Of a DNA stretch of 39,503 bases, positions 1-39,464 are shown in pieces; position 1 is the first letter of the stretch; every line of letters starts with the position of its first letter. This DNA is from a virus (taxonomy: Duplodnaviria > Heunggongvirae > Uroviricota > Caudoviricetes). The notes under the pieces were generated by a model. It was not told the DNA's origin. It saw nothing but the letters and a program-made list of their open reading frames with translations, and made no database searches. Location: IMG/VR virus record IMGVR_UViG_2718218309_000001; one strand, 5' to 3'. The position numbers and the translations under genes are program-made.

Positions 1-1749
1 ATGACAGTGGCAAATTATAATTCTCTTGTCCAGAAAACTTTCTGCGAAAATGCAATTCGTTCCGTTGTCATGATTGATGACGATTTTCTGACGTATTCTG
101 AATCAATCAGGGCGTTGAATAACGAAGTTGATTTAGACTACAACAAAATTGACTCATCTAAACGAGCCGCTACTCTTGAGAGCTTTTTTCAATCTAAAAA
201 TATGATTTGTGATGTTGACAATGGTTCTGTTAATTTCGATGTGGATCGGATTAGAAAATCAGATCTTATTATTGTAGATTATCATCTTGATAATAATGCA
301 CCTGATAAAACACTTAAACCATTACAAGATTTGAAAGACTCCGATCATTTAAATATGATTGTAATATATACTAGAGAGAATTTAGAAACGGTTTGGATGC
401 AGATATCATCGACTCTCAAAGGTGCTCTGGATATCAACAGCTTGATCATTGACTACGATAATGAAGATGTCCAAAGTTATTGGGAAGACGTTGTATTACC
501 GAACTTAAATGATAATGGTAATAAAGCTCTCACAAGAGATGAAACAATAGCCTATATTAAAGACAGTAAGCCTTGTAGAAGAATTAAAAGATTAATACAT
601 GATGATGCTGTGTTGGAGGATCAAAAGGATAAAAACTTCATTGCAAAAATGATTGCAGAATATGCTGTGTCTAGAAATGCAATTATTTCTAGCAACACAT
701 CTGGCAATGTCATTCGGGGTGATGAAAGCGGAGTAAAATGGATTCAATGTGGTAATATCTTTGTCTCCCTATTTCATAAGGTTCAAGATGATCATGAAAA
801 CGATGGAGATAGGATTTGGCAAACTCTCAATGATTCTCTCATTGAATGGAAACCATCTTATTATCAGTTAATAAAATCTGAAATTCAGAATGCAATCGAA
901 GCTGAGGCTTTATCTTTTGTAAATCATTTGGCTAACGATCATTACGGTCAAGCTGCGTGGTTAAATGAGATATTAAAATCAGACTCGCCTGATATTAGAT
1001 GTAGAAATATTGACTTTGTATTTGGTAATTTATCAGAAGAGCTTTATCAAAGACTTAAAAATAATAATACGCTGGATGAATTTATCAAAAGTGTTTTTGA
1101 TAGCTATTCAAATGAATACGCTAACAGCGGAGTTGCTGCATTGCTCCAATATTGCTCTTCAAAAATGGATCTGCCATCAAATAATGATACTTATCACGAA
1201 ATGTATCATGCTTTAAATATGAATTTGTCTTCAAAGAATTTTGAAGATGGTCATATTTCTACTGGCACTATTTTCTTTGATACAGAGTCGAACAAATGGT
1301 ATTTATGTGTATCTGCGGCATGTGATTTGGTTCCTACTCAGGGTAACGACCCTCACCATGTAAGATTAAGTCCGCACAGGCTCATTAAAGTTCTGGAGCT
1401 TTTTAACGCCAGTCAGAGTAAAGCATTGCCATTTGCTGAACATTCGAAATATATATATGTAATGCATAAAAATCAAAGAAAATATCTCTCTATTTTCGAA
1501 GGGGATAAAACGCTTCCTGTTGTTGATTATATGGTGGTGTTGAATCATGGAACAACAGTTGATGGCGAAGAAAAAAATATTATTTCTGCCGTGTTTTTAA
1601 GTAATATGGATGGCAACGTGCAAAATGTTCCTGTCCGACTCAAACTTAAATCTCAACTGAGAACTGGTTATGCAGAAAGATATCAGGCTATAGCGTCTCA
1701 GTATAGCTCAAGGATTGGTGTGGATTATGTATCAATGATGCTACCATAA
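1..1749 (+). CDS. Hypothetical 582-aa protein; N-terminal alpha/beta domain with acidic motifs (VVMIDDD, DLIIVDYHLD, MIVIYT, STLKG) reminiscent of receiver/PIN/Toprim-type folds; no P-loop seen
   Basis: Long uninterrupted ORF from ATG at position 1; AT-rich codon usage unlike the prophage core; alternating hydrophobic strands ending in Asp residues. Domain assignment is inference only. Confidence 0.6.
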   Translation: MTVANYNSLVQKTFCENAIRSVVMIDDDFLTYSESIRALNNEVDLDYNKIDSSKRAATLESFFQSKNMICDVDNGSVNFDVDRIRKSDLIIVDYHLDNNAPDKTLKPLQDLKDSDHLNMIVIYTRENLETVWMQISSTLKGALDINSLIIDYDNEDVQSYWEDVVLPNLNDNGNKALTRDETIAYIKDSKPCRRIKRLIHDDAVLEDQKDKNFIAKMIAEYAVSRNAIISSNTSGNVIRGDESGVKWIQCGNIFVSLFHKVQDDHENDGDRIWQTLNDSLIEWKPSYYQLIKSEIQNAIEAEALSFVNHLANDHYGQAAWLNEILKSDSPDIRCRNIDFVFGNLSEELYQRLKNNNTLDEFIKSVFDSYSNEYANSGVAALLQYCSSKMDLPSNNDTYHEMYHALNMNLSSKNFEDGHISTGTIFFDTESNKWYLCVSAACDLVPTQGNDPHHVRLSPHRLIKVLELFNASQSKALPFAEHSKYIYVMHKNQRKYLSIFEGDKTLPVVDYMVVLNHGTTVDGEEKNIISAVFLSNMDGNVQNVPVRLKLKSQLRTGYAERYQAIASQYSSRIGVDYVSMMLP

Positions 1750-1761
1750 TTATTATATTTT

Positions 1762-1789
1762 AGGCGTGGTGATTTTTTTCGCCATGCCT
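1762..1789. terminator. Hairpin (aggcgtgg / ccatgcct stem) followed by T-rich tract between convergent genes
   Basis: Inverted repeat 1762-1769 and 1782-1789 with about 12-nt loop, flanked by T runs; sits between the 3' ends of ORF 1-1749 (+) and ORF 1820-2236 (-). Confidence 0.3.
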
Positions 1790-1819
1790 ATTTTATATTT
1801 ATCATCACAATGATGTTGT

Positions 1820-2236
1820 TTATTTTTGTTTAAGTCTTCTAAGCTTCATGCATTCTAATGAGAATAATAATAGAGTTGTGCTGTATATAAAGCCAGAGTT
1901 AGTTAATAACTTTAAATTTAATGCTTCAGGATTTTCACTGAGAAAGTGAAAGGCATAAACTAAGTATACAGCTAAAGTAGCCGTTCCAATTGTTGGTCCA
2001 ATATCGCCTTGATCATGAGGTTCAAGGTTTACATTGAACTTGAAGATTAGCCATTCAAATCCCCAAGTAAAAAAAACAACTAATATCATGGCTGCGAATA
2101 ATTTCGCGATGTTATCTGCTGATGGATTCATCAGAACAGATTGTTTCTGAAAAAATTCACAAAGTGAGAGTCCGAAAAAAATAAAAAAAAGTGGTCTGGA
2201 ACTAAATTTTTCAAAAACTTTGAATAGGGTTTCCAT
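1820..2236 (-). CDS. Hypothetical small multi-pass membrane protein (138 aa, about 4 hydrophobic segments)
   Basis: ORF with several 18-22 aa hydrophobic stretches (FFIFFGLSL, AAMILVVFFTWGF, GTATLAVYLVYAF, IYSTTLLLFSL); immediately downstream of and co-directional with the P4-type integrase. Confidence 0.45.
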   Translation of the reverse strand: METLFKVFEKFSSRPLFFIFFGLSLCEFFQKQSVLMNPSADNIAKLFAAMILVVFFTWGFEWLIFKFNVNLEPHDQGDIGPTIGTATLAVYLVYAFHFLSENPEALNLKLLTNSGFIYSTTLLLFSLECMKLRRLKQK

Positions 2237-2274
2237 TTTCTTTACCTTCAGGATTATATTAGCTATTCTGATAC

Positions 2275-3546
2275 TTAGGCTACCAGAGCATTTGATCTTT
2301 GAGCTTGAACGTAATCACTCCACCATTGCATCAAACTCTGTCGCTCTATCAGATATTCTGCACGATTGTATGCTGCGATAATTTCATCTTTTTTCGAGTG
2401 GGCAAGCGCTGCCTCAAGAACTTCAGCTCTGAATTTACCAGACTCCTCTGCCGCTGTTCGTGCAATAGAACGCATACCGTGAGCTACAAGCTCGCCTCCG
2501 AACCCCATTCGGATGATAGCTGCGTTGGCTGTTTGTTCATGCATATGATTAAGAGGCGCTTTTATGCTGGGGAAAACCCATTCTCTATGCCCACTTATTG
2601 ATTTCATTAATTCAAGGATGCGCAAAGCTTCTTTACTCAAAGGAACTTTGTGAAGCTTTTTCATTTTCATGAAATCAGCAGGAATGTTCCAAATGCTGTT
2701 GGTTGTATCAATATCAGACCACCTTGCGCGAACGGCTTCACCCGGACGAACCCATGTCAACAATTGCCATTCAATTAGCATACGTGTTTCCAACCGGATT
2801 GACGCATTCGTCAAAGATTCCATAAACCTTGGCAATTCGCTTGGGGGAAGGGCAGGCATATTTTGCTTTTTTGGTTTACTGAATCTTTGACCAAGGTTGT
2901 CAGCCGGGTTGAACTCAATAAGTTCTTCAGTAGCTGCCCACCGGAAGATTTCATTCAGACGTGAAATGATACGGCGTAGAGTTTCCAATACGCCTCGTTG
3001 CTCAATAGGATCAAGGTGTTGTTTTAAGAGCTTAGGTCGGATCTCATTGATAGGGACATTACCCAGACCGGGAAAGACATTTCTCTCTAAGCTGCGCCAG
3101 ATGTCTGCTGCATGGTCTTGTGAGATACCTGATGTCTTTACCTTCTCATCTAACCATTTCCGCGCTACGGCTTGGAGAGTGTGCTCAGTAGCACTCTTTA
3201 ATGCCTTCGCCTTATCGTTGTTATGGATTTGGGGATCAACACCATTTGCCAGAAAGGAGAGATATTCATCACGTAAGGCTCTGGCTCTTGCAAGGGTAAG
3301 GTGAGGATATGTCCCAAGGCTCATTTTGGTTCTTTTCTTGCTCACTGGTACTGCATACCTGAAATACCAATTTTTCTTGCCTCCTTTCGCCAAAGGAGCG
3401 ATTCGTAGAATCAGACCATCACCGTCAAACAAGTTGATTTCTTTATCGGCTGGCTTGGTGCTTTTGATTTCAGTGTCAGTGAGCTTCTTAGCGATTTTTG
3501 CCATTTTGGGACCCTCGGTTTTTGGACCCTTCTTAGTGGGTCCCAT
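2275..3546 (-). CDS. int: P4-family tyrosine integrase (CP4-57 IntA-like); true start probably the internal Met (MAKIAKKLTDTEIK, near 3504)
   Basis: N-terminal TDTEIKSTKP...DGDGL...WYFRY motif block typical of P4-type integrases; C-terminal catalytic region with R...H..R..Y-type residues (HGMRS, AHS...YNRAEY); adjacent to att copy. Confidence 0.9.
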   Translation of the reverse strand: MGPTKKGPKTEGPKMAKIAKKLTDTEIKSTKPADKEINLFDGDGLILRIAPLAKGGKKNWYFRYAVPVSKKRTKMSLGTYPHLTLARARALRDEYLSFLANGVDPQIHNNDKAKALKSATEHTLQAVARKWLDEKVKTSGISQDHAADIWRSLERNVFPGLGNVPINEIRPKLLKQHLDPIEQRGVLETLRRIISRLNEIFRWAATEELIEFNPADNLGQRFSKPKKQNMPALPPSELPRFMESLTNASIRLETRMLIEWQLLTWVRPGEAVRARWSDIDTTNSIWNIPADFMKMKKLHKVPLSKEALRILELMKSISGHREWVFPSIKAPLNHMHEQTANAAIIRMGFGGELVAHGMRSIARTAAEESGKFRAEVLEAALAHSKKDEIIAAYNRAEYLIERQSLMQWWSDYVQAQRSNALVA

Positions 3547-3669
3547 TCAGGGTGCCATAACTCGTAGTTCTCAGCAATTCTCACTGGACGACAATAGACG
3601 TAAAAAAGCCCGCAGAGCTTGTGCTGTGTGGGCTTAGTAGACTTCATTGAACTTCAAACAACTAAAAAG

Positions 3670-3714
3670 TGGTGGAGCTGGCGGGAGTTGAACCCGCGTC
3701 CGAAATTCCTACAT
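3670..3714. repeat. 45-bp direct repeat of the ssrA 3' end (att core copy; junction between prophage and P4-like island)
   Basis: tggtggagctggcgggagttgaacccgcgtccgaaattcctacat is identical to 39102-39146 (the 3' end of ssrA); sequences diverge immediately outside. Confidence 0.9.
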
Positions 3715-3827: not shown

Positions 3828-5021
3828 TCACTTCTTGTCTTCGATAGAACCGTATTCAAGAAGGTTGTCCATACACTTCTCTAACCTATAGAAATCTGTC
3901 AAAGGATAGAGATTGACAATGTTGTCATCAAAACTTTGCATACCTGATAAACGTTCTTTCCTTCTTAAGAATCTTGAGGCAGACCTAACACCATCATCCT
4001 CACTTGGTTCACAGGAATAATCTAGAGTTTTTAGTACCTGCCATGAAACGGGGGGAGTAAGCTTGAACATTTTTACTAGCTTAGGACAGAAATCTTTTGT
4101 TATGGTTTGCTGATATGTAACTTTAGGTGGAAGAACAACGTTAATAGATTTATCACCATGGTTTGTTTTAATCATTCTTGTCGATCTGTATGCAATTCCG
4201 ACAATGTTTGATTTATTTCTACGACTAATCCATTGCATTAATAAATTTGGGATTATATATTCCTGAGTGAAAGATGTGCTGCCGTTAATCTTTGCAAAAC
4301 TACAAGCGTAAATTAGTGGCATTAAACAAATGTAAGACATCTTTGTGATGTATGACATTTTGTCATTATCAATCTTACCATAGAAACGTGAGTAGAGGAT
4401 TTCCGAAGTGAAATCTAATATTTTGGAATTTTCTTCACTGGATATAAAAGAAGATATATATAACTTATCAAAATCAGGTTTATCCATTTCAAGCCAACAT
4501 ACATATAGGGATGAGCCTAAATATAAACAGGGTAGACCTGCAACCGAGTATCTTTGGGCATTTACCAAGTGCCTTTTAGAGAATGGTATATGAAAGATTT
4601 CATTTCTATTTTTTACTGCTGTATCAGATTTTCTAACCCTGAATAAAGGTCTTGAAGAATTGCAAATATTCTCTAAGGGGATTGATATTTTCTGGATGTA
4701 GTTAGCTGTGAATCGATCAGAAAATGTTCTGTCGAAAGTATCATATGAGGACTTGATATCACCTGATAAAAAATATTCCAAAGAGCTTACAACGCCAAAG
4801 TATATTCTTGTTATTCTATCAAGTTTAGAACTCAATCTACGAGATAATTCATTGTCATTATCTTCTATGTAGTCATTTAAAGTATTAAAGTAAATTTCAC
4901 ATTTATTTTTAAAATCATTAATAATGTCGGTCTTAACAGTGAAAGGGAGTTTTAAATCTCCCGTCTTTATAAGGCTTTCAAATAAAAAATTAAAATCATC
5001 ATGTATATTTTCGGTTTCCAT
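3828..5021 (-). CDS. RES-domain-like protein (397 aa), candidate NAD+-targeting toxin/effector
   Basis: Motif block PLFRVR...QRYSVAGLPCLYLGSSLYVCWLE (aa about 125-179) matches the RES signature (Arg ... G.P.LYL.SS ... E) known from RES-Xre toxins; very AT-rich; second gene of an operon downstream of int. Confidence 0.55.
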   Translation of the reverse strand: METENIHDDFNFLFESLIKTGDLKLPFTVKTDIINDFKNKCEIYFNTLNDYIEDNDNELSRRLSSKLDRITRIYFGVVSSLEYFLSGDIKSSYDTFDRTFSDRFTANYIQKISIPLENICNSSRPLFRVRKSDTAVKNRNEIFHIPFSKRHLVNAQRYSVAGLPCLYLGSSLYVCWLEMDKPDFDKLYISSFISSEENSKILDFTSEILYSRFYGKIDNDKMSYITKMSYICLMPLIYACSFAKINGSTSFTQEYIIPNLLMQWISRRNKSNIVGIAYRSTRMIKTNHGDKSINVVLPPKVTYQQTITKDFCPKLVKMFKLTPPVSWQVLKTLDYSCEPSEDDGVRSASRFLRRKERLSGMQSFDDNIVNLYPLTDFYRLEKCMDNLLEYGSIEDKK

Positions 5022-5075
5022 TGTTATTATCCTTTTGAGTAATTTAATGAATATAACGGGTTTTTCGTGACAGCA

Positions 5076-6203
5076 TCATTCCAAATGATCTGCCGCCGCT
5101 TTGCCGCCAAGGATTTTCATATAAGGAGGCTTAGCATAAACCTCCTTGGTCTGCTGGAAAGTGGTTTTGGAGAATCTTCTTTCTTCTGATTGTAAATATT
5201 TTAGCAGACGTTGATATTTGTTTTCTAATATTTGACTATTCCCAGCCAGATCGTAAATATCGCAGGTTATGTTATAAAGCCAATAAACTACGGCTTTGAT
5301 TTCAGGCTCTGAGAAATAGGTTGTGTTAAATACATATTCATTATTATGATTGTAAATGTAGGAGTGTTTCCTTTGTATAGTGTTAACCTTAAGTAGCTTC
5401 ATAAGGTTGATAATTTTAAGGTCAATAGAAATTAAAGAAATTATCTCTGACTTCAAATCACCCTTTTTGATACCAATAATTTCTTTATCAAGTTCATTCC
5501 AGGCATTTATGATTTTTTGCGTGAATTTTGGGGAAGGGCTATAAATTGCACCAGTATTTTGTGAAGATTGAAATAAATTATTATAAAGCTTATGAGGAAA
5601 TACAATTTTCACTTCGTAAGTATTTACTTTTTCACTTGATTCTATATAAGCATGGCTAGCCACTTCAGCAGCCACATGCCTTGTTCGATCAGTCTGCGTG
5701 GGGATATATTCAAGAACCAAAGTAGGGAATGAACTAATCGTTTCGATAAATAGTTTTAAATGAGAGTAATAAGCGTCTGCATTGTTTTTAACTTTAGCTG
5801 ATTGTATCTGTGATTCAGTTTGAATGGTTCTATGAATATTATTTACTATTGAAGCCAGTGGCACTGATGAAGCTAATAATAGCAACGGAAGTTTACTAAT
5901 ATTAAGAAAATTTGCAAACCCGTCGGTTGTCAGTTGTAAACTATGATCTCTCCAAACCCAGCAACCGAATAAAATAAAATAGTAAAATGGTAATAAGATA
6001 GAAGCTATAAACAAAGGTTGTTTGAATAAATTATTGTCATTTAACTCAAACCACCCGTAAAAATAAAACAGTCCTATTGTTATAAATAATGAGGTTATTG
6101 CCACCGTTAAGAACATTACCTCAAAACCATAATATATTGTAAAAGTATTTGCAACTATGGATAGTAAGAGCAAAAAAGTTAAAGTGATAATTTTATTTTT
6201 CAT
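5076..6203 (-). CDS. Hypothetical membrane protein (375 aa): about 4 N-terminal TM helices plus about 280-aa soluble C-terminal domain
   Basis: Hydrophobic segments in the first 90 aa; start ATG (6203-6201) overlaps the int stop codon (TGA 6202-6200), i.e. ATGA translational coupling with int; AT-rich. Confidence 0.6.
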   Translation of the reverse strand: MKNKIITLTFLLLLSIVANTFTIYYGFEVMFLTVAITSLFITIGLFYFYGWFELNDNNLFKQPLFIASILLPFYYFILFGCWVWRDHSLQLTTDGFANFLNISKLPLLLLASSVPLASIVNNIHRTIQTESQIQSAKVKNNADAYYSHLKLFIETISSFPTLVLEYIPTQTDRTRHVAAEVASHAYIESSEKVNTYEVKIVFPHKLYNNLFQSSQNTGAIYSPSPKFTQKIINAWNELDKEIIGIKKGDLKSEIISLISIDLKIINLMKLLKVNTIQRKHSYIYNHNNEYVFNTTYFSEPEIKAVVYWLYNITCDIYDLAGNSQILENKYQRLLKYLQSEERRFSKTTFQQTKEVYAKPPYMKILGGKAAADHLE

Positions 6204-7219
6204 AAGTTAATCATATTCAACGGGTTTTTGGTAACTGCATCTTCTAAATGATCTGGGGAGAAATGTGCATAGATCATTGTCATCTTAATATCGGCATGCC
6301 CAAGAATTTCTTTAAGAACAAGTATATTACCGCCATTCATCATGAAATAGCTTGCGAAGGTATGCCGCAGCACGTGGGTACATTGGCCCTCTGGCAAGTC
6401 GATACCAGCTCGTTTCACTGCGCGCTCAAAAGCTTTTCTGCATGGCGTGAATAGTTTCCCTCTGTTTTTGGGGAGTTCATCATACAGCTCCTGAGATATC
6501 GGTATGGTACGGTTTTTCTTGCCTTTAGTTTTGGTATAGGTGATCCGGTATTTAGTTAACTGATGGCCTTGAAGGTTTTCTGCTTCACTCCATCGCGCGC
6601 CGGTAGCCAGGCATATTTTTGCAATCATCAATAGGCTGGAGCTATGAGAATCTGCGCAAGCATCAAGCAGGCGTTTAATTTCTTCCGTGGTCAGGAACGC
6701 CAGCTCACCTTCTGCGATTTTAAATGTTGGCAAACCGGCGAGTGGATTGGGTGCTGACCAATGGCCCAACTTTTTCAGTGTGCCAAACACGGATGATAGG
6801 TTGCGTTGTTCAAGGTTTACCGTGCGAGGCTTAACTGGCGACATAAGCACGCCATCTTCATTTCGCACCTCACCTTTTAGCCGTGCTTCGCGGTATTTCG
6901 TAAAGTCGCCAGCGGTTAACTCTGAGGCAACAGGATCACCCAGGCCGTTACAAATAATGTTGAGTTTTGCCATCAGGCGTTTGGGGTCAGCAAGTGTCTG
7001 CCCGTAGAGTGAATGCCATTGCTCAATCACTTCTGACAAACGCCGCCGATCTTCTTTCTCACCCAACCACGGTTTTTTGTTTACTTCGTCCATGGTGTGA
7101 TTTTCGAATGCTATGGCCTCACCTTTCGTCGCAAATTGTTTGCGCACACGCTTGCCGTCGCGCCCGTTAGGGTAGCACTCACATAACCATTTACCGTTCG
7201 GCTGTTTTCTGATGGTCAT
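6200..7219 (-). CDS. int: P2/186-type tyrosine integrase
   Basis: 339-aa protein with N-terminal MTIRKQPNGKWLCE... and C-terminal catalytic residues (R...HVLRHTFAS...YAHF), as in P2 Int; located next to the repressor gene as in P2/186. Confidence 0.9.
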   Translation of the reverse strand: MTIRKQPNGKWLCECYPNGRDGKRVRKQFATKGEAIAFENHTMDEVNKKPWLGEKEDRRRLSEVIEQWHSLYGQTLADPKRLMAKLNIICNGLGDPVASELTAGDFTKYREARLKGEVRNEDGVLMSPVKPRTVNLEQRNLSSVFGTLKKLGHWSAPNPLAGLPTFKIAEGELAFLTTEEIKRLLDACADSHSSSLLMIAKICLATGARWSEAENLQGHQLTKYRITYTKTKGKKNRTIPISQELYDELPKNRGKLFTPCRKAFERAVKRAGIDLPEGQCTHVLRHTFASYFMMNGGNILVLKEILGHADIKMTMIYAHFSPDHLEDAVTKNPLNMINL

Positions 7220-7222
7220 AAG

Positions 7223-7873
7223 TTAGAGGCTCTTGATTACTTTGGCTGCTCGTCCTACAACTTCCACATCATCTACAGAGCATTCAAATGAAGTGTCATC
7301 TTGGTGAACTACTATTTTGTTTCCGGGTATACGTGCAATTTTGACGATGTTTTTCATACCGTCGATGTCTATGAGCCAAATTCCGTTACTAAGCTGTTTT
7401 GCTGATGTGTCAACGATGTAATTGCCATCGCTAGCTTTGACGTACAAACAGTATTCGGCTTTTCCGGGTATCAAACTCTGATCAAGGAAAACATCTTCCA
7501 GCTCTTCGAGCGTTCCGTTCTCAATGGTTGCCTGCCGTACTGATGGGATAACAATCTTTGAAAGGGGGCGAACTGTAGGTGAACTCTCGTTTTTGAACTT
7601 ATTTTTTTCTTCTGTTTGAGGATACATTTCCCCTTGGCCCGTTGTCAGCCAAAGCAGAGAAATACCTGTTTCAAGGGCACATTGAATAACCCAGTCAGCG
7701 GGAAAGCTATCACGTAACATCCTGTTTGCCATGGTACTTTTTGATGCTTCGAGATGTTCAACTAACGCTATTTGAGTGTTGAAACCATAGGCGGTCATCA
7801 GCCTTTTGATGGTCTCCCTTCCTCCCGTATTTGCACCTGTATTGATCTTCAAGATGAACTCTCCATTTGACAA
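7223..7873 (-). CDS. cI: Phage 186 CI-like immunity repressor
   Basis: Resembles 186 CI (AYGF..., CALETG..LWLTTGQGE, C-terminal VDDVEVVGR); divergent from apl across an operator-containing intergenic region. Start codon uncertain (track start is a non-ATG codon). Confidence 0.8.
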   Translation of the reverse strand: MSNGEFILKINTGANTGGRETIKRLMTAYGFNTQIALVEHLEASKSTMANRMLRDSFPADWVIQCALETGISLLWLTTGQGEMYPQTEEKNKFKNESSPTVRPLSKIVIPSVRQATIENGTLEELEDVFLDQSLIPGKAEYCLYVKASDGNYIVDTSAKQLSNGIWLIDIDGMKNIVKIARIPGNKIVVHQDDTSFECSVDDVEVVGRAAKVIKSL

Positions 7874-7902
7874 TCCAATAATGGGATCGTATTTTTGTGT
7901 TC

Positions 7903-7929
7903 AACTTCTAATGTGAGAGTTTAGAAGTT
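7903..7929. promoter_or_regulatory. Candidate repressor operator: perfect 9-bp inverted repeat AACTTCTAA-N9-TTAGAAGTT in the cI/apl divergent promoter region
   Basis: Palindrome seen directly in the 100-bp intergenic region between divergent cI and apl. Confidence 0.4.
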
Positions 7930-7975
7930 GGGGTTAAACATCATAAAACGCACTAAAGCCAAGAGATACTGCACT

Positions 7976-8218
7976 ATGAGCACAGATATTTCAATTCGTG
8001 TACCAAAAGAGATGGCTACGCCTGCAGAGTTCGCTGAATGGGAAGGTATCTCCCGTGGCTCTGTTTACCAGAAAATTCACCATGGTCAGCTTGCTAAGTA
8101 CATGGTCAAGAAAGAAAAAAACAAAGGTCGCGTAAGCCTGCGTTACCTGATGTACAAAACCGACCAGGTTCGTGAATCCCTCGGTCATTCCAACTTTCGC
8201 GTCATTGTTGGTCAGTAA
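7976..8218 (+). CDS. apl: Apl/Cox-like excisionase and transcriptional regulator (HTH)
   Basis: First gene of the early rightward operon; HTH-like segment ATPAEFAEWEGISRGSVYQKIHHGQL typical of Cox/Apl/AlpA-type proteins. ATG at 7976 preferred over the TTG at 7928 that lies inside the operator. Confidence 0.7.
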   Translation: MSTDISIRVPKEMATPAEFAEWEGISRGSVYQKIHHGQLAKYMVKKEKNKGRVSLRYLMYKTDQVRESLGHSNFRVIVGQ

Positions 8219-8250
8219 GTTCGATTATGAGAACTTTCTAAGGGGCTTGC

Positions 8251-8760
8251 ATGTTTGATTATCGCGTTTCCAAACATCCACACTTTGACGAAGCCTGCCG
8301 GGCTTTCGCACTGCGTCACAACATGGTGAAGCTGGCAGAACGCGCAGGAATGAATGTCCAGACGCTGCGCAATAAGCTGAACCCGGAGCAACCGCATCAA
8401 CTTACGCCGCCGGAGATCTGGCTGCTGACTGATATCACAGAAGACTCAACGCTGGTTGACGGTTTTCTGGCTCAAATCCATTGCCTGCCGTGCGTGCCAT
8501 TGAATGAAGTGGCAAAAGAGAACCTGCCGCATTACGTCATGAGTGCAACCGCAGAGATCGGGCGTGTTGCTGCAGGTGCGGTATCTGGCGATGTAAAAAC
8601 CAGTGCAGGTCGTCGTGATGCTATCAGCAGCATTAACTCTGTAACACGACTGATGGCGCTGGCTGCTGTTTCATTGCAGGCCCGTTTACAGGCTAACCCT
8701 GCGATGGTGAGTGCAGTTGATACCGTGACTGGCCTCGGTGCTTCATTCGGTTTGCTGTGA
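8251..8760 (+). CDS. cII: Phage 186 CII-like lysogeny establishment regulator (169 aa)
   Basis: Position after apl and size match 186 CII; HTH-like N-terminal region. Confidence 0.7.
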   Translation: MFDYRVSKHPHFDEACRAFALRHNMVKLAERAGMNVQTLRNKLNPEQPHQLTPPEIWLLTDITEDSTLVDGFLAQIHCLPCVPLNEVAKENLPHYVMSATAEIGRVAAGAVSGDVKTSAGRRDAISSINSVTRLMALAAVSLQARLQANPAMVSAVDTVTGLGASFGLL

Positions 8761-8767
8761 GGTGCTT

Positions 8768-9064
8768 ATGCTGAAGAAAGAACCATCATTTGCATCGCTG
8801 CTGGTAAAACAAAGTCCGGCAATGCACTACGGTCACGGCTGGATCATGGGTGAGGATGGTAAACGCTGGCATCCATGTCATTCACAAGATGAATTGCTGT
8901 CTGAATTGACCACGAGGAAACGGAGAAAGTCAAAATGTATGCAGCGGAAAGTGAAGTGGTTTATCAGTTTCGTTACAGAGGGGAGAGTTATTCAGTACCT
9001 GAAGATGATTTGCTGTGTTGTTATCCGTCGTTGTCGGGCGATGGCAGTTACTTTTTCACGCTAA
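8768..9064 (+). CDS. Hypothetical early protein (3' extent doubtful; C-terminal half looks like low-complexity read-through)
   Basis: GAGGTG RBS before ATG 8768; overlaps the next ORF by about 130 nt in another frame. Confidence 0.3.
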   Translation: MLKKEPSFASLLVKQSPAMHYGHGWIMGEDGKRWHPCHSQDELLSELTTRKRRKSKCMQRKVKWFISFVTEGRVIQYLKMICCVVIRRCRAMAVTFSR

Positions 9065-9159
9065 AAGATGGGACGTTTTTACGGGGAGAGCAGGTTAAAG
9101 AGACGATACGAAAAAATGTATCTCCTCTTGAACGTTACCGTAATAACAAACAACGATAG
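8935..9159 (+). CDS. Hypothetical early protein (74 aa)
   Basis: ORF with GGAG-type RBS upstream; position corresponds to small early genes (fil/dhr/orf78 region) of 186/P2. Confidence 0.4.
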   Translation: MYAAESEVVYQFRYRGESYSVPEDDLLCCYPSLSGDGSYFFTLKDGTFLRGEQVKETIRKNVSPLERYRNNKQR

Positions 9160-9181
9160 TTGCGTTTTGGGGATATGAATT

Positions 9182-9523
9182 ATGGCAATTAATGGCGCTG
9201 CGGCGACTGTTCCATTAAGCCCCGGTGAACGCCTGAATGGACTTAATCACATTGCGGAGCTAAGGGCGAAAGTTTTTGGCCTGAATATTGAGTCAGAGCT
9301 TGAGCGGTTTATTAAAGATATGCGTGATCCACGGGATATCAATAACGAACAAAATAAACGGGCACTGGCTGCTATATTCTTTATGGCAAAAATTCCAGCT
9401 GAACGTCATAGCATCAGCATTAATGAGCTGACCACTGACGAAAAGCGGGAGTTGATTAAAGCAATGAATCATTTTCGTGCAGTGGTGAGCTTATTTCCCA
9501 GACGGCTAACCATGCCGAATTAA
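9182..9523 (+). CDS. Hypothetical early protein (P2 orf80-region analogue)
   Basis: Co-directional ORF in the early operon; coding-like composition. Confidence 0.55.
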   Translation: MAINGAAATVPLSPGERLNGLNHIAELRAKVFGLNIESELERFIKDMRDPRDINNEQNKRALAAIFFMAKIPAERHSISINELTTDEKRELIKAMNHFRAVVSLFPRRLTMPN

Positions 9524-9584
9524 CCAACTAATGAAATTAATGGCGTAAACCCGCCGGGTATCCCTTTATCTAAATTCAGGAGAA

Positions 9585-9824
9585 TTGATTATGCGTAATA
9601 TTGAAACCCTCACGACTAAAACCGGACCGGATGATGCAGGGCTTAATATTTTACTGACAGAGGCTCGTCTGGAAGAACGCCGGGCAAGGGCTGAAGCAAT
9701 GGCAGCTCGCCTTGATAGCCTGGCGTGTCATATCACATCCCGCCAGCTAAACCACGTCGAAGCAGCAGAACTGCTGCGTGTAACTGCTGAAGCAATCCAG
9801 AACGAAGCGCAGGAGATCCACTAA
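9585..9824 (+). CDS. Hypothetical early protein (P2 orf81-region analogue)
   Basis: Co-directional ORF; stop overlaps the next gene start. Confidence 0.5.
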   Translation: MIMRNIETLTTKTGPDDAGLNILLTEARLEERRARAEAMAARLDSLACHITSRQLNHVEAAELLRVTAEAIQNEAQEIH

Positions 9825-10051
9825 TGGCTGATGCAATGGATCTCGTACAGCAGCGCGTTGAAGAAGAACGCCAGCGCCATATCCGTGCTGCCCGTGCCAA
9901 AACGCCGGGCGTGTCCCGCGTGCTTTGCATTGAGTGTGAAGCGCCAATTCCGCCAGCACGCCGCCGCGCCATTCCAGGTGTGCAGCTTTGCATTACCTGT
10001 CAGGAAATCGCAGAGCTGAAAGGCAAACATTACAACGGAGGTGCTGTATGA
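9824..10051 (+). CDS. TraR/DksA-family C4 zinc-finger protein
   Basis: CIECEAPIP...CITCQ (Cx2C-N17-Cx2C) in a 75-aa protein, as in P2 orf82/TraR-like proteins. Confidence 0.75.
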   Translation: MADAMDLVQQRVEEERQRHIRAARAKTPGVSRVLCIECEAPIPPARRRAIPGVQLCITCQEIAELKGKHYNGGAV

Positions 10052-10905
10052 GCACCATCCTGAAATGGGCGGGAAATAAAACCGCAATTATGTCCGAACT
10101 GAAAAAACACCTTCCTGCTGGCCCGCGACTGGTTGAACCTTTCGCGGGTTCCTGTGCTGTGATGATGGCGACGGATTATCCAAGCTATCTGGTTGCGGAT
10201 ATTAATCCTGATTTAATCAACCTCTATAAAAAGGTTGCCGCTGATTGTGAATCGTTTATATCTCGCGCCAGAGTTTTATTTAAGGAAGCAAACAGGGAGG
10301 TGGCTTATTACAACATAAGGCAGGAGTTTAATTACTCAACTGAAATTACTGATTTCATGAAAGCGGTATATTTCCTGTATCTCAATCGTCACGGTTACCG
10401 TGGTTTATGTCGCTATAACAAGAGCGGGCATTTCAACATTCCGTACGGTAATTATAAAAATCCGTATTTCCCTGAAAAAGAAATTCGCGCATTTGCAGAG
10501 AAAGCCCAGCGGGCAACGTTTATCTGCGCAAGCTTTGATGAAACGCTGGCGATGCTGCAGGTGGGGGATGTGGTGTATTGCGATCCGCCGTATGACGGTA
10601 CGTTTTCCGGCTATCACACTGATGGTTTCACTGAAGATGACCAGTATCACCTAGCATCCGTTCTTGAACATCGGTCATCAGAAGGACATCCGGTCATTGT
10701 TTCTAACAGTGACACATCCCTGATCCGTTCGCTATATCGCAATTTTACTCACCACTACATCAAGGCAAAACGCAGCATCGGTGTGGCAGCTGGTGAGAGT
10801 AAATCTGCAACAGAAATCATCGCTGTTTCCGGGCCGCGCTGCTGGGTGGGATTTGATCCTTCGCGTGGCGTGGATAGTTCTGCCGTGTACGGAGTGCGTG
10901 CATGA
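10048..10905 (+). CDS. dam: DNA adenine methyltransferase (Dam family, GATC-type)
   Basis: N-terminal SAM-binding block (KWAGNK...LVEPFAGS) and catalytic DPPY motif ([10 protein letters not shown]); ATG at 10048; stop overlaps the A start (ATGA). Confidence 0.9.
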
Positions 10906-39101: not shown

Positions 39102-39146
39102 TGGTGGAGCTGGCGGGAGTTGAACCCGCGTCCGAAATTCCTACAT
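39102..39146. repeat. 45-bp att core within the ssrA 3' end (direct repeat partner of 3670-3714)
   Basis: Identical 45-mer; this copy is part of the intact tmRNA gene. Confidence 0.9.
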
Positions 39147-39464
39147 CCTCGGTACTACATGCTTAGTCAGTCTTTACATTCGCTTGCCAGCTGCGGACGG
39201 ACACGCCACTAACAAACTAGCCTGATTAAGTTTTAACGCTTCAACCCCAGGCAGGGCTTCCACGCGATCTCTTTTGGGTTTGACCTCTCTTGATCCCCGT
39301 CCTAAGAGCGGAGGCTAGGGAGAGAGGGCTCTAAGCAGGTTATTAAGCTGCTAAAGCGTAGTTTTCGTCGTTTGCGACTATTTTTTGCGGCTTTTTACGA
39401 GGCCAACCGCCCCTCGGCATGCACCTTGGGTTTCGCAAATCCCGTCGAATCCAGAATCAGCCCC
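39102..39464 (-). ncRNA. ssrA: tmRNA (transfer-messenger RNA, SsrA), 363 nt
   Basis: Reverse complement reads GGGGCTGATTCTGGATTCGACGGG...GCAAACGACGAAAACTACGCTTTAGCAGCTTAA (tag peptide ANDENYALAA)...GGTTCAACTCCCGCCAGCTCCACCA, matching the E. coli tmRNA sequence. Confidence 0.97.

Follow-up and report, generated by a model that had tools for sequence, protein, structure and literature searches.

The DNA analyzed here is the 39,503-nucleotide virus record IMGVR_UViG_2718218309_000001 of IMG/VR, called the window at its full length, and the subject is the protein of 582 amino acids (aa) encoded by the open reading frame (ORF) at its left end (positions 1–1749, plus strand; WP_000214996.1). Our analysis shows that this ORF encodes the receiver, or response regulator (RR)-like, component of a two-component-like system marked by the Pfam families HEF_HK (PF19191) and Response_reg_2 (PF19192). 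It also shows that the copy of this system residing at ssrA of Escherichia coli is a remnant, in which the kinase has been cut and both its GHKL domain and the accompanying methylase gene have been deleted. The family itself is already known, having been defined bioinformatically in 2021 (Bellieny-Rabelo, Pretorius, and Moleleki, Genome Biol Evol; PMC8011034), and the E. coli copy is a decayed one; the intact system of relatives is a unit of methylase, kinase, and receiver genes, which makes a good candidate for a defense system. We lean toward accepting three propositions together: the RR-like identity of the 582-aa protein, the remnant state of the E. coli copy, and a phosphorelay-gated defense mechanism of the intact unit.

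The 582-aa protein as the receiver of a two-component-like system

Residues 19–175 of the 582-aa protein match PF19192 at 105.7 bits (E 3.9e-30), where the gathering score is 27, and RefSeq gives the protein the name “response regulator receiver domain.” Homologues number 111, with lengths of 570–630 aa, and each of the 48 homologues included in an alignment matches PF19192. With PF00072 (Response_reg), no match was obtained in the window protein and only sub-threshold ones in just 5 of the 48. The protein possesses the (beta-alpha)5 fold of CheY-like response regulators, and the receiver (REC) module, delimited by the PF19192 match, the conserved residues, and the strands of the AlphaFold2 (AF2) model, occupies residues 19–262 (positions 55–786, plus strand). 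The acidic pair of the receiver pocket, D26/D27 (76–81), the predicted phospho-acceptor D93 (277–279), T124 (370–372), and the receiver lysine K260 (778–780), which stands at the end of the strand formed by residues 253–259, all encoded on the plus strand, are invariant in the 48 homologues, whose identity goes down to 22%. These residues fit the strand positions of the AF2 model, where the acidic pair, the Asp, the Thr, and the Lys come after strands 1, 3, 4, and 5, respectively. A helical insertion of ~110 residues (~145–250) lies between helix 4 and strand 5.

An earlier note, made from the letters of the window alone, had described an acidic N-terminal fold resembling those of receiver, PIN, or Toprim domains and had proposed a check on the conservation of its acidic residues. 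The invariance of D26, D27, and D93 bears that conservation out, and PF19192 together with the invariant residues decides for the receiver; the PIN and Toprim alternatives find no support. The motif STLKG, which had been counted into the receiver pattern, drops out of it: its lysine is not conserved, and the invariant lysine is K260. Because K260 ends the receiver, the module reaches approximately residue 262 and leaves ~320 aa beyond it, not the ~450 aa of motif-less remainder that had been assumed, although the statements that the protein has no P-loop and that the remainder belongs to no recognizable family both stand. No known output domain, such as a DNA-binding or GGDEF domain, was found in the 582-aa protein or the 48 homologues. 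NCBIfam, PADLOC, and PHROGs yielded no informative family for this protein or for the neighboring 138-aa protein; the PHROG matches of the two are families of unknown function, and phrog_8137 has a length of 572 aa, exactly that of the truncated kinase described next.

The kinase partner and the decay of the E. coli copy

The 582-aa ORF begins with its ATG exactly at position 1 of the window, as the earlier note had observed, and the leftward extension proposed there was made in E. coli genomes of identical sequence, where a gene for a kinase with HEF_HK and HATPase_c domains was found upstream. In strain LD91-1 (locus L001), whose DNA is identical to positions 1–3714 of the window, this upstream gene is annotated “ATP-binding protein” and matches HEF_HK with E 1.2e-5 and HATPase_c with E 1.8e-11. 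The TAA stop codon of the kinase gene lies 1 nt before the ATG of the RR-like gene and is accompanied by a preceding GGAG-rich stretch, which points to translational coupling within one operon. The earlier suggestion that the 582-aa protein pairs with the convergent 138-aa protein has to be given up, for each of them occurs without the other and the true partner of the former is the kinase immediately to the left of position 1.

Annotated as 572 aa, the E. coli kinase aligns, at 88% identity, to residues 420–991 of the 991-aa kinase of L009, an 86%-identical island that is the closest intact one. Its reading frame runs upstream past the annotated Met to a junction, and the DNA homology to L009 begins at approximately codon 379 of the kinase. 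The HATPase_c_3 (GHKL) domain is absent from the E. coli kinase and the methylase is absent from the island; the remainder of the L009 island, which includes a relaxase gene, has also been lost in E. coli. To the left of the junction lies a chromosomal amylase-like pseudogene, and the insertion sequence (IS) IS3 is placed exactly at the junction in most genomes, the IS3/kinase junction being identical in 483 of them. The record of prophage CP-1639 (GenBank AJ304858) has the identical junction and no IS3; it names the stretch a “remnant integrative element” and contains a “histidin kinase-like protein.” The RR-carrying region of the window is shared at 100% identity with many E. coli chromosomes and was found in 585 of 5,426 complete genomes, none of which contains an intact methylase gene or a kinase N terminus of the window lineage.

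In the kinase fragment, the matches to HEF_HK and HATPase_c persist, and the HEF histidine and the ATP-binding boxes are legible in the alignment. The HEF histidine, in the sequence SHELEE, is residue 366 of the fragment and approximately residue 785 of the L009 kinase. The RR-like gene is intact in the window; other strains have alleles of 1,751 nt (one with the annotation “frameshifted”) or of 1,748 nt, the annotation of single strains places genes of IS1414, IS3-family elements, and ISVsa5 inside the RR match or next to it, and a form of 453 aa, truncated at its C terminus, has 1,605 member sequences versus 1,966 in the full-length cluster. The RR-like gene is, to judge from these sequences, being lost piecemeal in E. 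coli. Because the island has lost the methylase together with the first third of the kinase, the E. coli copy is most likely dead and almost certainly no longer has its original function. Any implication that the locus is a working or novel system finds no support, in view of the 5′-truncated kinase, the lost methylase, the publication of the family in 2021, and the label in AJ304858; as a decayed island remnant, and labeled so in that record, the window locus should not be counted as a defense system or as a new protein pair.

A separate observation concerns a contig of 5.6 kb labeled as a metagenome-assembled genome (MAG) of Bacteroidales (L022; DAIPZW010000118.1). It encodes an RR protein 100% identical to that of the window, with the 572-aa truncated kinase upstream, and its place in that MAG most likely reflects mis-binning of, or contamination by, E. 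coli sequence.

The intact methylase/kinase/receiver unit in relatives

The intact unit consists of the genes for a Dcm-type C5 methylase, a kinase of ~990 aa, and a receiver protein of ~580–610 aa, in this order, and the genes usually overlap or abut. The kinase is soluble and has an N-terminal HATPase_c_3 domain (MORC/MutL-type GHKL) fused to HEF_HK and HATPase_c, a full architecture that is present in relatives L002–L009 and L012. Examples of the unit come from a Rhizobium plasmid, a Pseudoalteromonas replicon, Pantoea, a Salmonella integrative and conjugative element (ICE), and a Klebsiella ssrA island, and two metagenomic relatives have RR proteins 84–86% identical to that of the window. 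A survey that took one genome per species and labeled the ORFs by phmmer added 38 further loci, for ~45 in total. Wherever the flanks are long enough, the three genes almost always lie side by side, and L048 is the only locus without the methylase if the E. coli remnant contig L022 is set aside. The unit spans Gamma-, Alpha-, and Betaproteobacteria, Planctomycetota, and Armatimonadota, and its carriers are islands, ICEs, and large plasmids. All-against-all clustering of the flanking ORFs revealed no fourth universal gene, only integrases, ICE genes, and lineage-specific genes; a Vsr gene lies beside ~9 loci and an HNH gene beside a few. As far as the surveyed loci tell, the three-gene unit is almost invariant across phyla, and most triads contain no separate nuclease.

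The methylases of the relatives give strong PADLOC MTase_II matches, whereas the sole REase_II match, that of profile PDLC03419 (PADLOC), covers the GHKL domain of the kinase. A link of this type of cargo to restriction-modification (R-M) is upheld both by the methylase adjacency in relatives and by PMC8011034. Losses of single components follow two patterns. In L048, a Gemmatimonadetes MAG (4869–10797), the kinase is shortened at its N terminus to 842 aa and is devoid of HATPase_c_3, the methylase is absent, and a DDE_5 transposase gene immediately precedes the kinase gene; loss of the methylase has therefore been seen twice independently, in E. coli and in L048, and the GHKL domain was lost too both times. 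In L010 and L016, the kinase and/or the receiver gene is broken and the methylase is kept. The coupled loss of methylase and GHKL domain and the retention of the methylase in broken loci fit the logic of R-M systems.

Approximately 212 E. coli genomes possess an intact paralogous triad, ~72% identical, at a different locus. In strain SE15 (L012; NC_013654.1, 7102–14294), it comprises the methylase, a 989-aa kinase, and a 607-aa receiver protein, followed by a 290-aa HNH protein annotated as “phosphorothioated DNA-binding restriction endonuclease,” and the element that carries it is ICE-like, with ArdC and MobH.

In Salmonella, Klebsiella, Citrobacter, and Rhizobium loci, a gene for a Cys-rich protein of ~247 aa stands convergent just downstream of the receiver gene (L005, 11816–12559, minus strand; L008, 12042–12548; L026, 10812–11570; L045, 12206–12973). 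The protein shows a CxxCGG...EH...CxxCN pattern that looks HNH-like by eye and has no Pfam match at E ≤ 0.001. In some triads, it may serve as an accessory nuclease.

The helical and C-terminal domains of the receiver protein

Beyond the receiver module, the 582-aa protein continues with an all-helical middle domain (residues 268–410; positions 802–1230, plus strand), which ends in a conserved H-A-L-N motif whose L405 and N406 are invariant, and with a beta-rich C-terminal domain (residues 411–582; positions 1231–1746, plus strand), the presumed effector or output. Invariant residues of the latter are G422, C436, C441, P445, P458, Q552, R554, Y557, R571, G573, and D575, and R460 and R560 are nearly invariant. 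A C-x4-C-D motif (positions 1306–1326, plus strand), in which C436 and C441 are invariant and D442 nearly so, leads into a loop that AlphaFold places poorly, the confidence score pLDDT being <50 at residues 442–447 (motif and loop together, residues 436–447, correspond to positions 1306–1341). That two cysteines are invariant although the protein is cytoplasmic hints at metal binding or at a function in catalysis or redox chemistry.

Similarity searches assigned the C-terminal domain to no known fold. Beyond the receiver, the 48 homologues contain no Pfam family, and the window protein no NCBIfam or PADLOC family either; HMMER searches with full-length and C-terminal profiles against all Protein Data Bank (PDB) sequences returned chance matches only; Foldseek of the C-terminal model against the PDB gave a best E of 0.06 with no toxin among the matches; and no PD-(D/E)xK, HNH, GIY-YIG, or PLD domain was recognized in the kinase or the receiver protein. 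When a profile of residues 395–582 was run against 1.84 billion proteins, 635 representatives were obtained, and the 150 of them that were listed share a single architecture, with no other architecture bearing the domain among those 150; the short matches that were examined are contig fragments. Because a single architecture was returned, the C-terminal domain appears, from this search, to be exclusive to the family.

The ssrA island and its border gene

The island part of the window continues rightward from the RR-like gene with a terminator-like hairpin (1761–1790, plus strand), a 12-pair stem followed by a T-run, which lies between two convergent genes (the hairpin scan found 2 such sites versus 0.4 expected from shuffles). 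Next come the gene for the 138-aa small hydrophobic protein (1820–2236, minus strand; WP_000448925.1) and that for the tyrosine integrase of the decayed island, an enzyme of the P4 type (423 aa; 2275–3546, minus strand) that matches NF007246/PRK09692 (440.4 bits against the NF007246 cut-off of 434) and has the domains Arm-DNA-bind_3, Phage_int_M, and Phage_integrase. A 45-bp copy of the ssrA 3′ end, the attachment site of the older island, follows at 3670–3714 (minus strand); it is an exact repeat of 39102–39146, within the intact ssrA (the tmRNA gene, called at 39102–39464). This exact direct repeat brackets ~35 kb (3715–39101) of a P2-family prophage, with a replication endonuclease gene, a terminase gene, and P2 capsid and portal genes. 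In strain LD91-1, which does not have the P2-like prophage, the same integrase gene directly adjoins intact ssrA. From the repeat and from this adjacency it follows that the RR-like gene belongs to the older island, displaced by a later P2-like insertion; the window thus contains two tandem ssrA insertions, of which the RR-carrying remnant is the older one.

In E. coli, the island from ssrA to the chromosomal amylase pseudogene consists of the integrase gene, the 138-aa gene, the RR-like gene, the truncated kinase gene, and usually IS3. Of the earlier description as cargo of a P4-like island, the part that names integrative-island cargo beside a P4-type integrase is sound, but the satellite part is not: no P4 satellite function (primase/helicase alpha, Psu/Sid/Delta, cos) was found within the whole interval from ssrA to the amylase pseudogene. 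Two further ORFs, of 397 aa (3828–5021, minus strand) and 375 aa (5076–6203, minus strand), lie inside the prophage end beside the att repeat. Neither PADLOC nor NCBIfam gave a family for them, and they match PHROGs of unknown function (phrog_7835 and phrog_17460), with only a sub-threshold RES-domain match (E 0.052) for the 397-aa ORF; they could be prophage-end cargo.

The 138-aa ORF is convergent with the 582-aa ORF and stands beside the P4-type integrase, just as had been noted. It is a real conserved gene, with 52 homologues of 60–84% identity in Enterobacterales; its description as a multi-pass membrane protein is less secure, since a strict Kyte-Doolittle analysis gives one strongly hydrophobic segment and inspection by eye allows up to four. 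It adjoins the RR-like gene in related Salmonella, Serratia, Citrobacter, and Erwinia islands, and the receiver system occurs without it in L002–L010 (including the 86%-identical island L009), L012, and most of L029–L059; all triads more distant than L009 lack it as well. Conversely, it is found where there is no receiver system, beside BamHI-type R-M genes in Klebsiella oxytoca, beside Abi_C and YobI-ATPase genes in Photorhabdus, and beside DUF6119 and HxsA genes, with the same integrase, in E. coli O55:H7. Since unrelated cargo also adjoins it, it cannot be regarded as a partner dedicated to the receiver protein, and by these neighborhoods it seems to behave as a border gene of variable, often defense-type cargo. 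In the window and in loci L011 and L013–L020, it usually lies beside an integrase gene, and its conservation may make it a marker for a slot whose cargo varies.

Discussion

For the intact system, gene content, conserved residues, the decay pattern, and the precedent of the anti-phage system Detocs (Rousset et al., bioRxiv 10.1101/2023.01.24.525353) lead us to infer the following mechanism. The methylase would mark self DNA, and the GHKL module of the kinase would monitor DNA or its methylation state, gating the autophosphorylation of the HEF histidine. The phosphoryl group would then move to D93 of the receiver, and phosphorylation would switch the C-terminal module, which is the putative restriction or toxic effector and whose action is probably directed at nucleic acid or leads to growth arrest. 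Overall, the unit would be an R-M-like or abortive defense system gated by a phosphorelay. The C-terminal module is proposed as the effector because it is the only conserved part left and because the near-invariant triad has no separate nuclease, which points to this domain of the receiver protein as the missing effector. A bolder form of the proposal, which we entertain only tentatively, is that intact triads form a distinct immune class in which methylation is read by a MORC ATPase and signaled through a His-Asp relay to a new effector, possibly a divergent CcdB/MazF-like toxin. If that were true, the unit would be an R-M system whose “R” arm is a two-component phosphorelay, and the E. coli copy would be its fossil.

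Several points weigh against this reading. Literature searches on the HEF_HK/Response_reg_2 family found no experimental work, and the searches of the receiver C terminus by Foldseek and HMMER against the PDB and by Pfam in the 48 members found no nuclease or other catalytic fold. Phosphorylation could act in either direction, activating or silencing the output, and the system could alternatively be a regulator of the methylase or of a distinct nuclease, given the HNH and Vsr genes at some loci. The argument from coupled loss has n = 2, and the samples for both decay patterns are tiny. As for the E. coli copy, its kinase core and RR ORF have remained uninterrupted and translationally coupled, so that residual or co-opted activity is possible, and IS3 is only a possible cause of the deletion because CP-1639 has the junction without it.

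Among the alternatives, one is a sub-case of the proposed mechanism rather than its opposite, namely that the C-terminal domain is a receiver-gated toxin of the CcdB/MazF type, which poisons gyrase or cleaves RNA once phosphorylation releases it; the outcome would be abortive infection, not DNA restriction. The topology of the predicted model would fit, with a beta barrel followed by a C-terminal helix and a flexible loop after strand 2. The comparisons made with that possibility in view do not bear it out: beyond the toxin-free Foldseek result, hhalign, comparing the domain profile with an alignment of real MazF homologues, gave a Prob of 0.03, HMMER against PDB sequences gave nothing, no PemK or CcdB Pfam match occurs in the 48 members, the MazF invariants (R29, T52, and others) have no evident counterparts, and the domain, at ~170 aa, is larger than the ~100–110 aa of the toxins. 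We regard the toxin identity as somewhat unlikely.

Another possibility is a purely regulatory two-component system, in which the kinase and receiver tune the methylase or an R-M system and the C terminus is a DNA- or protein-binding output. Response regulators are mostly transcription factors, no catalytic fold emerged from the structure and profile searches of the receiver protein, and the Arg-rich conservation of its C-terminal domain (R554 and R571, with the nearly invariant R460 and R560) would suit nucleic-acid binding. PMC8011034 itself proposes signaling control of R-M. This explanation is weakened, however, because no DNA-binding output fold was found and most triads have no separate nuclease to be regulated. 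An apparatus of ~1,600 aa is also hard to justify for a single methylase, and the decay pattern is R-M-like, with the methylase kept when the kinase or receiver breaks and the GHKL domain lost together with the methylase. We therefore consider regulation alone distinctly unlikely, and prefer the phosphorelay-gated defense mechanism for the intact unit.

For the E. coli copy, the alternative to a dead remnant is co-option, whereby the sensor-less kinase core and the receiver protein would have acquired a new, selected role in strains of the phylogroup-B1 type. It is true that both ORFs are intact and coupled in the window and in most of ~560 genomes at identity of at least 99%, and that the kinase fragment retains its domain matches, its HEF histidine, and its ATP-binding boxes. 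The near-identity of the E. coli alleles (at least 99.5%) reflects recent common descent, however, and not selection; several alleles have been disrupted independently by frameshifts or IS elements, the 453-aa truncated form is widespread, and the gene upstream of the kinase fragment is IS3 or a pseudogene. Co-option is, in our judgment, very improbable. Scarcely credible is a stand-alone two-gene defense cargo of a P4-like hotspot, functional in the strain and made of the 582-aa and 138-aa proteins, since, although both genes are flanked by the P4-type integrase on one side and the remaining island on the other, are next to each other in related islands of Salmonella, Serratia, Citrobacter, and Erwinia, and include one that often borders defense-type genes, each is found without the other (L009 has no 138-aa gene), the two are convergent with the terminator-like hairpin between them, the receiver gene is coupled translationally to the kinase gene instead, and the system is truncated in E. 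coli, where four genes and an IS remain and P4 satellite genes are absent.

The dead-remnant reading of the E. coli copy and the defense reading of the intact unit direct attention away from the window and to intact, easily clonable copies, which are found in E. coli SE15 (triad at 7102–13177 of L012) and in the Salmonella ICE (5852–11752 of L005). These copies could show whether bacteria run a restriction-like defense through a His-Asp phosphorelay, for which Detocs, built from unrelated parts, is the sole precedent.

Comparison with known systems

The E. coli island resembles CP4-57-type ssrA islands and P4-like hotspots in its P4-type integrase, its integration at the ssrA 3′ end, and its variable, defense-flavored cargo, and differs from them in that four genes survive and no P4 replication or capsid-hijacking genes are present. 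WonAB, treated in the Vibrio cholerae WASA paper, is an ATPase/nuclease system and unrelated. From the CcdB, MazF, and Kid toxins, the C-terminal domain is set apart by the lack of sequence or profile similarity and of Foldseek support, by the absence of a cognate antitoxin gene, and by catalytic residues that are not identifiable. The likeness to type II R-M systems is closer, in that the relatives have a C5 methylase and often Vsr, are mobile and patchily distributed, and decay with the methylase retained; in place of a recognizable endonuclease domain, which was not found in them, stands a phosphorelay, and the window contains no methylase.

Like the MORC/paraMORC systems (Iyer, Abhiman, and Aravind 2008; PMC2292703), the intact family has a kinase that opens with a HATPase_c_3 GHKL domain and stands beside Dcm-type methylases and Vsr. 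In the relatives, however, the GHKL domain is fused to a kinase core, and at the E. coli locus no GHKL portion is left; in the text of PMC2292703, the word “receiver” appears nowhere, and “histidine kinase” only in the expansion of GHKL. Detocs, in which a relay runs from the kinase DtcA to the buffer receiver DtcB and the receiver-PNP effector DtcC, shares with the intact family the proposed logic of a soluble histidine kinase acting on a receiver fused to a non-DNA-binding effector, encoded on mobile elements. The differences are considerable: no PADLOC Detocs model matches the RR-like protein or the full-length kinase of the relatives, a stand-alone (buffer) receiver gene is absent from the loci of the intact family, the sensor is a MORC-type GHKL domain and not tetratricopeptide repeats, the effector is not a PNP nucleosidase, and the methylase is an obligatory partner. 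The intact family works like Detocs at most and is not a member of it.

The system to which the window copy belongs is that of PMC8011034, where the two genes were found linked in 91.6% of cases, with type II R-M genes, C5 methylases, Vsr, and HNH enriched nearby, where E. coli genomes were in the data set, and where a relationship to paraMORC ATPases was suggested and the remaining residues of the receiver protein were left unassigned. The window copy agrees with it in its PF19192 match, in its neighbor with HEF_HK and HATPase_c, and in the linkage of its relatives to C5 methylase, Vsr, and HNH genes, and departs from the predominant architecture in that both the HATPase_c_3 domain of the kinase and the linked C5 methylase are missing. 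The published reading of this departure is to be corrected: the E. coli member of the “group 2” architecture (Fig. 6 of PMC8011034), which consists of HEF_HK and HATPase_c only, is shown here to be a deletion product, the L048 member is probably a truncation product as well, and the class may be inflated by pseudogenes. To the published description, the present analysis adds the insertion in the receiver, the helical domain, the beta-rich domain that appears exclusive to the family, and the near-invariant three-gene unit.

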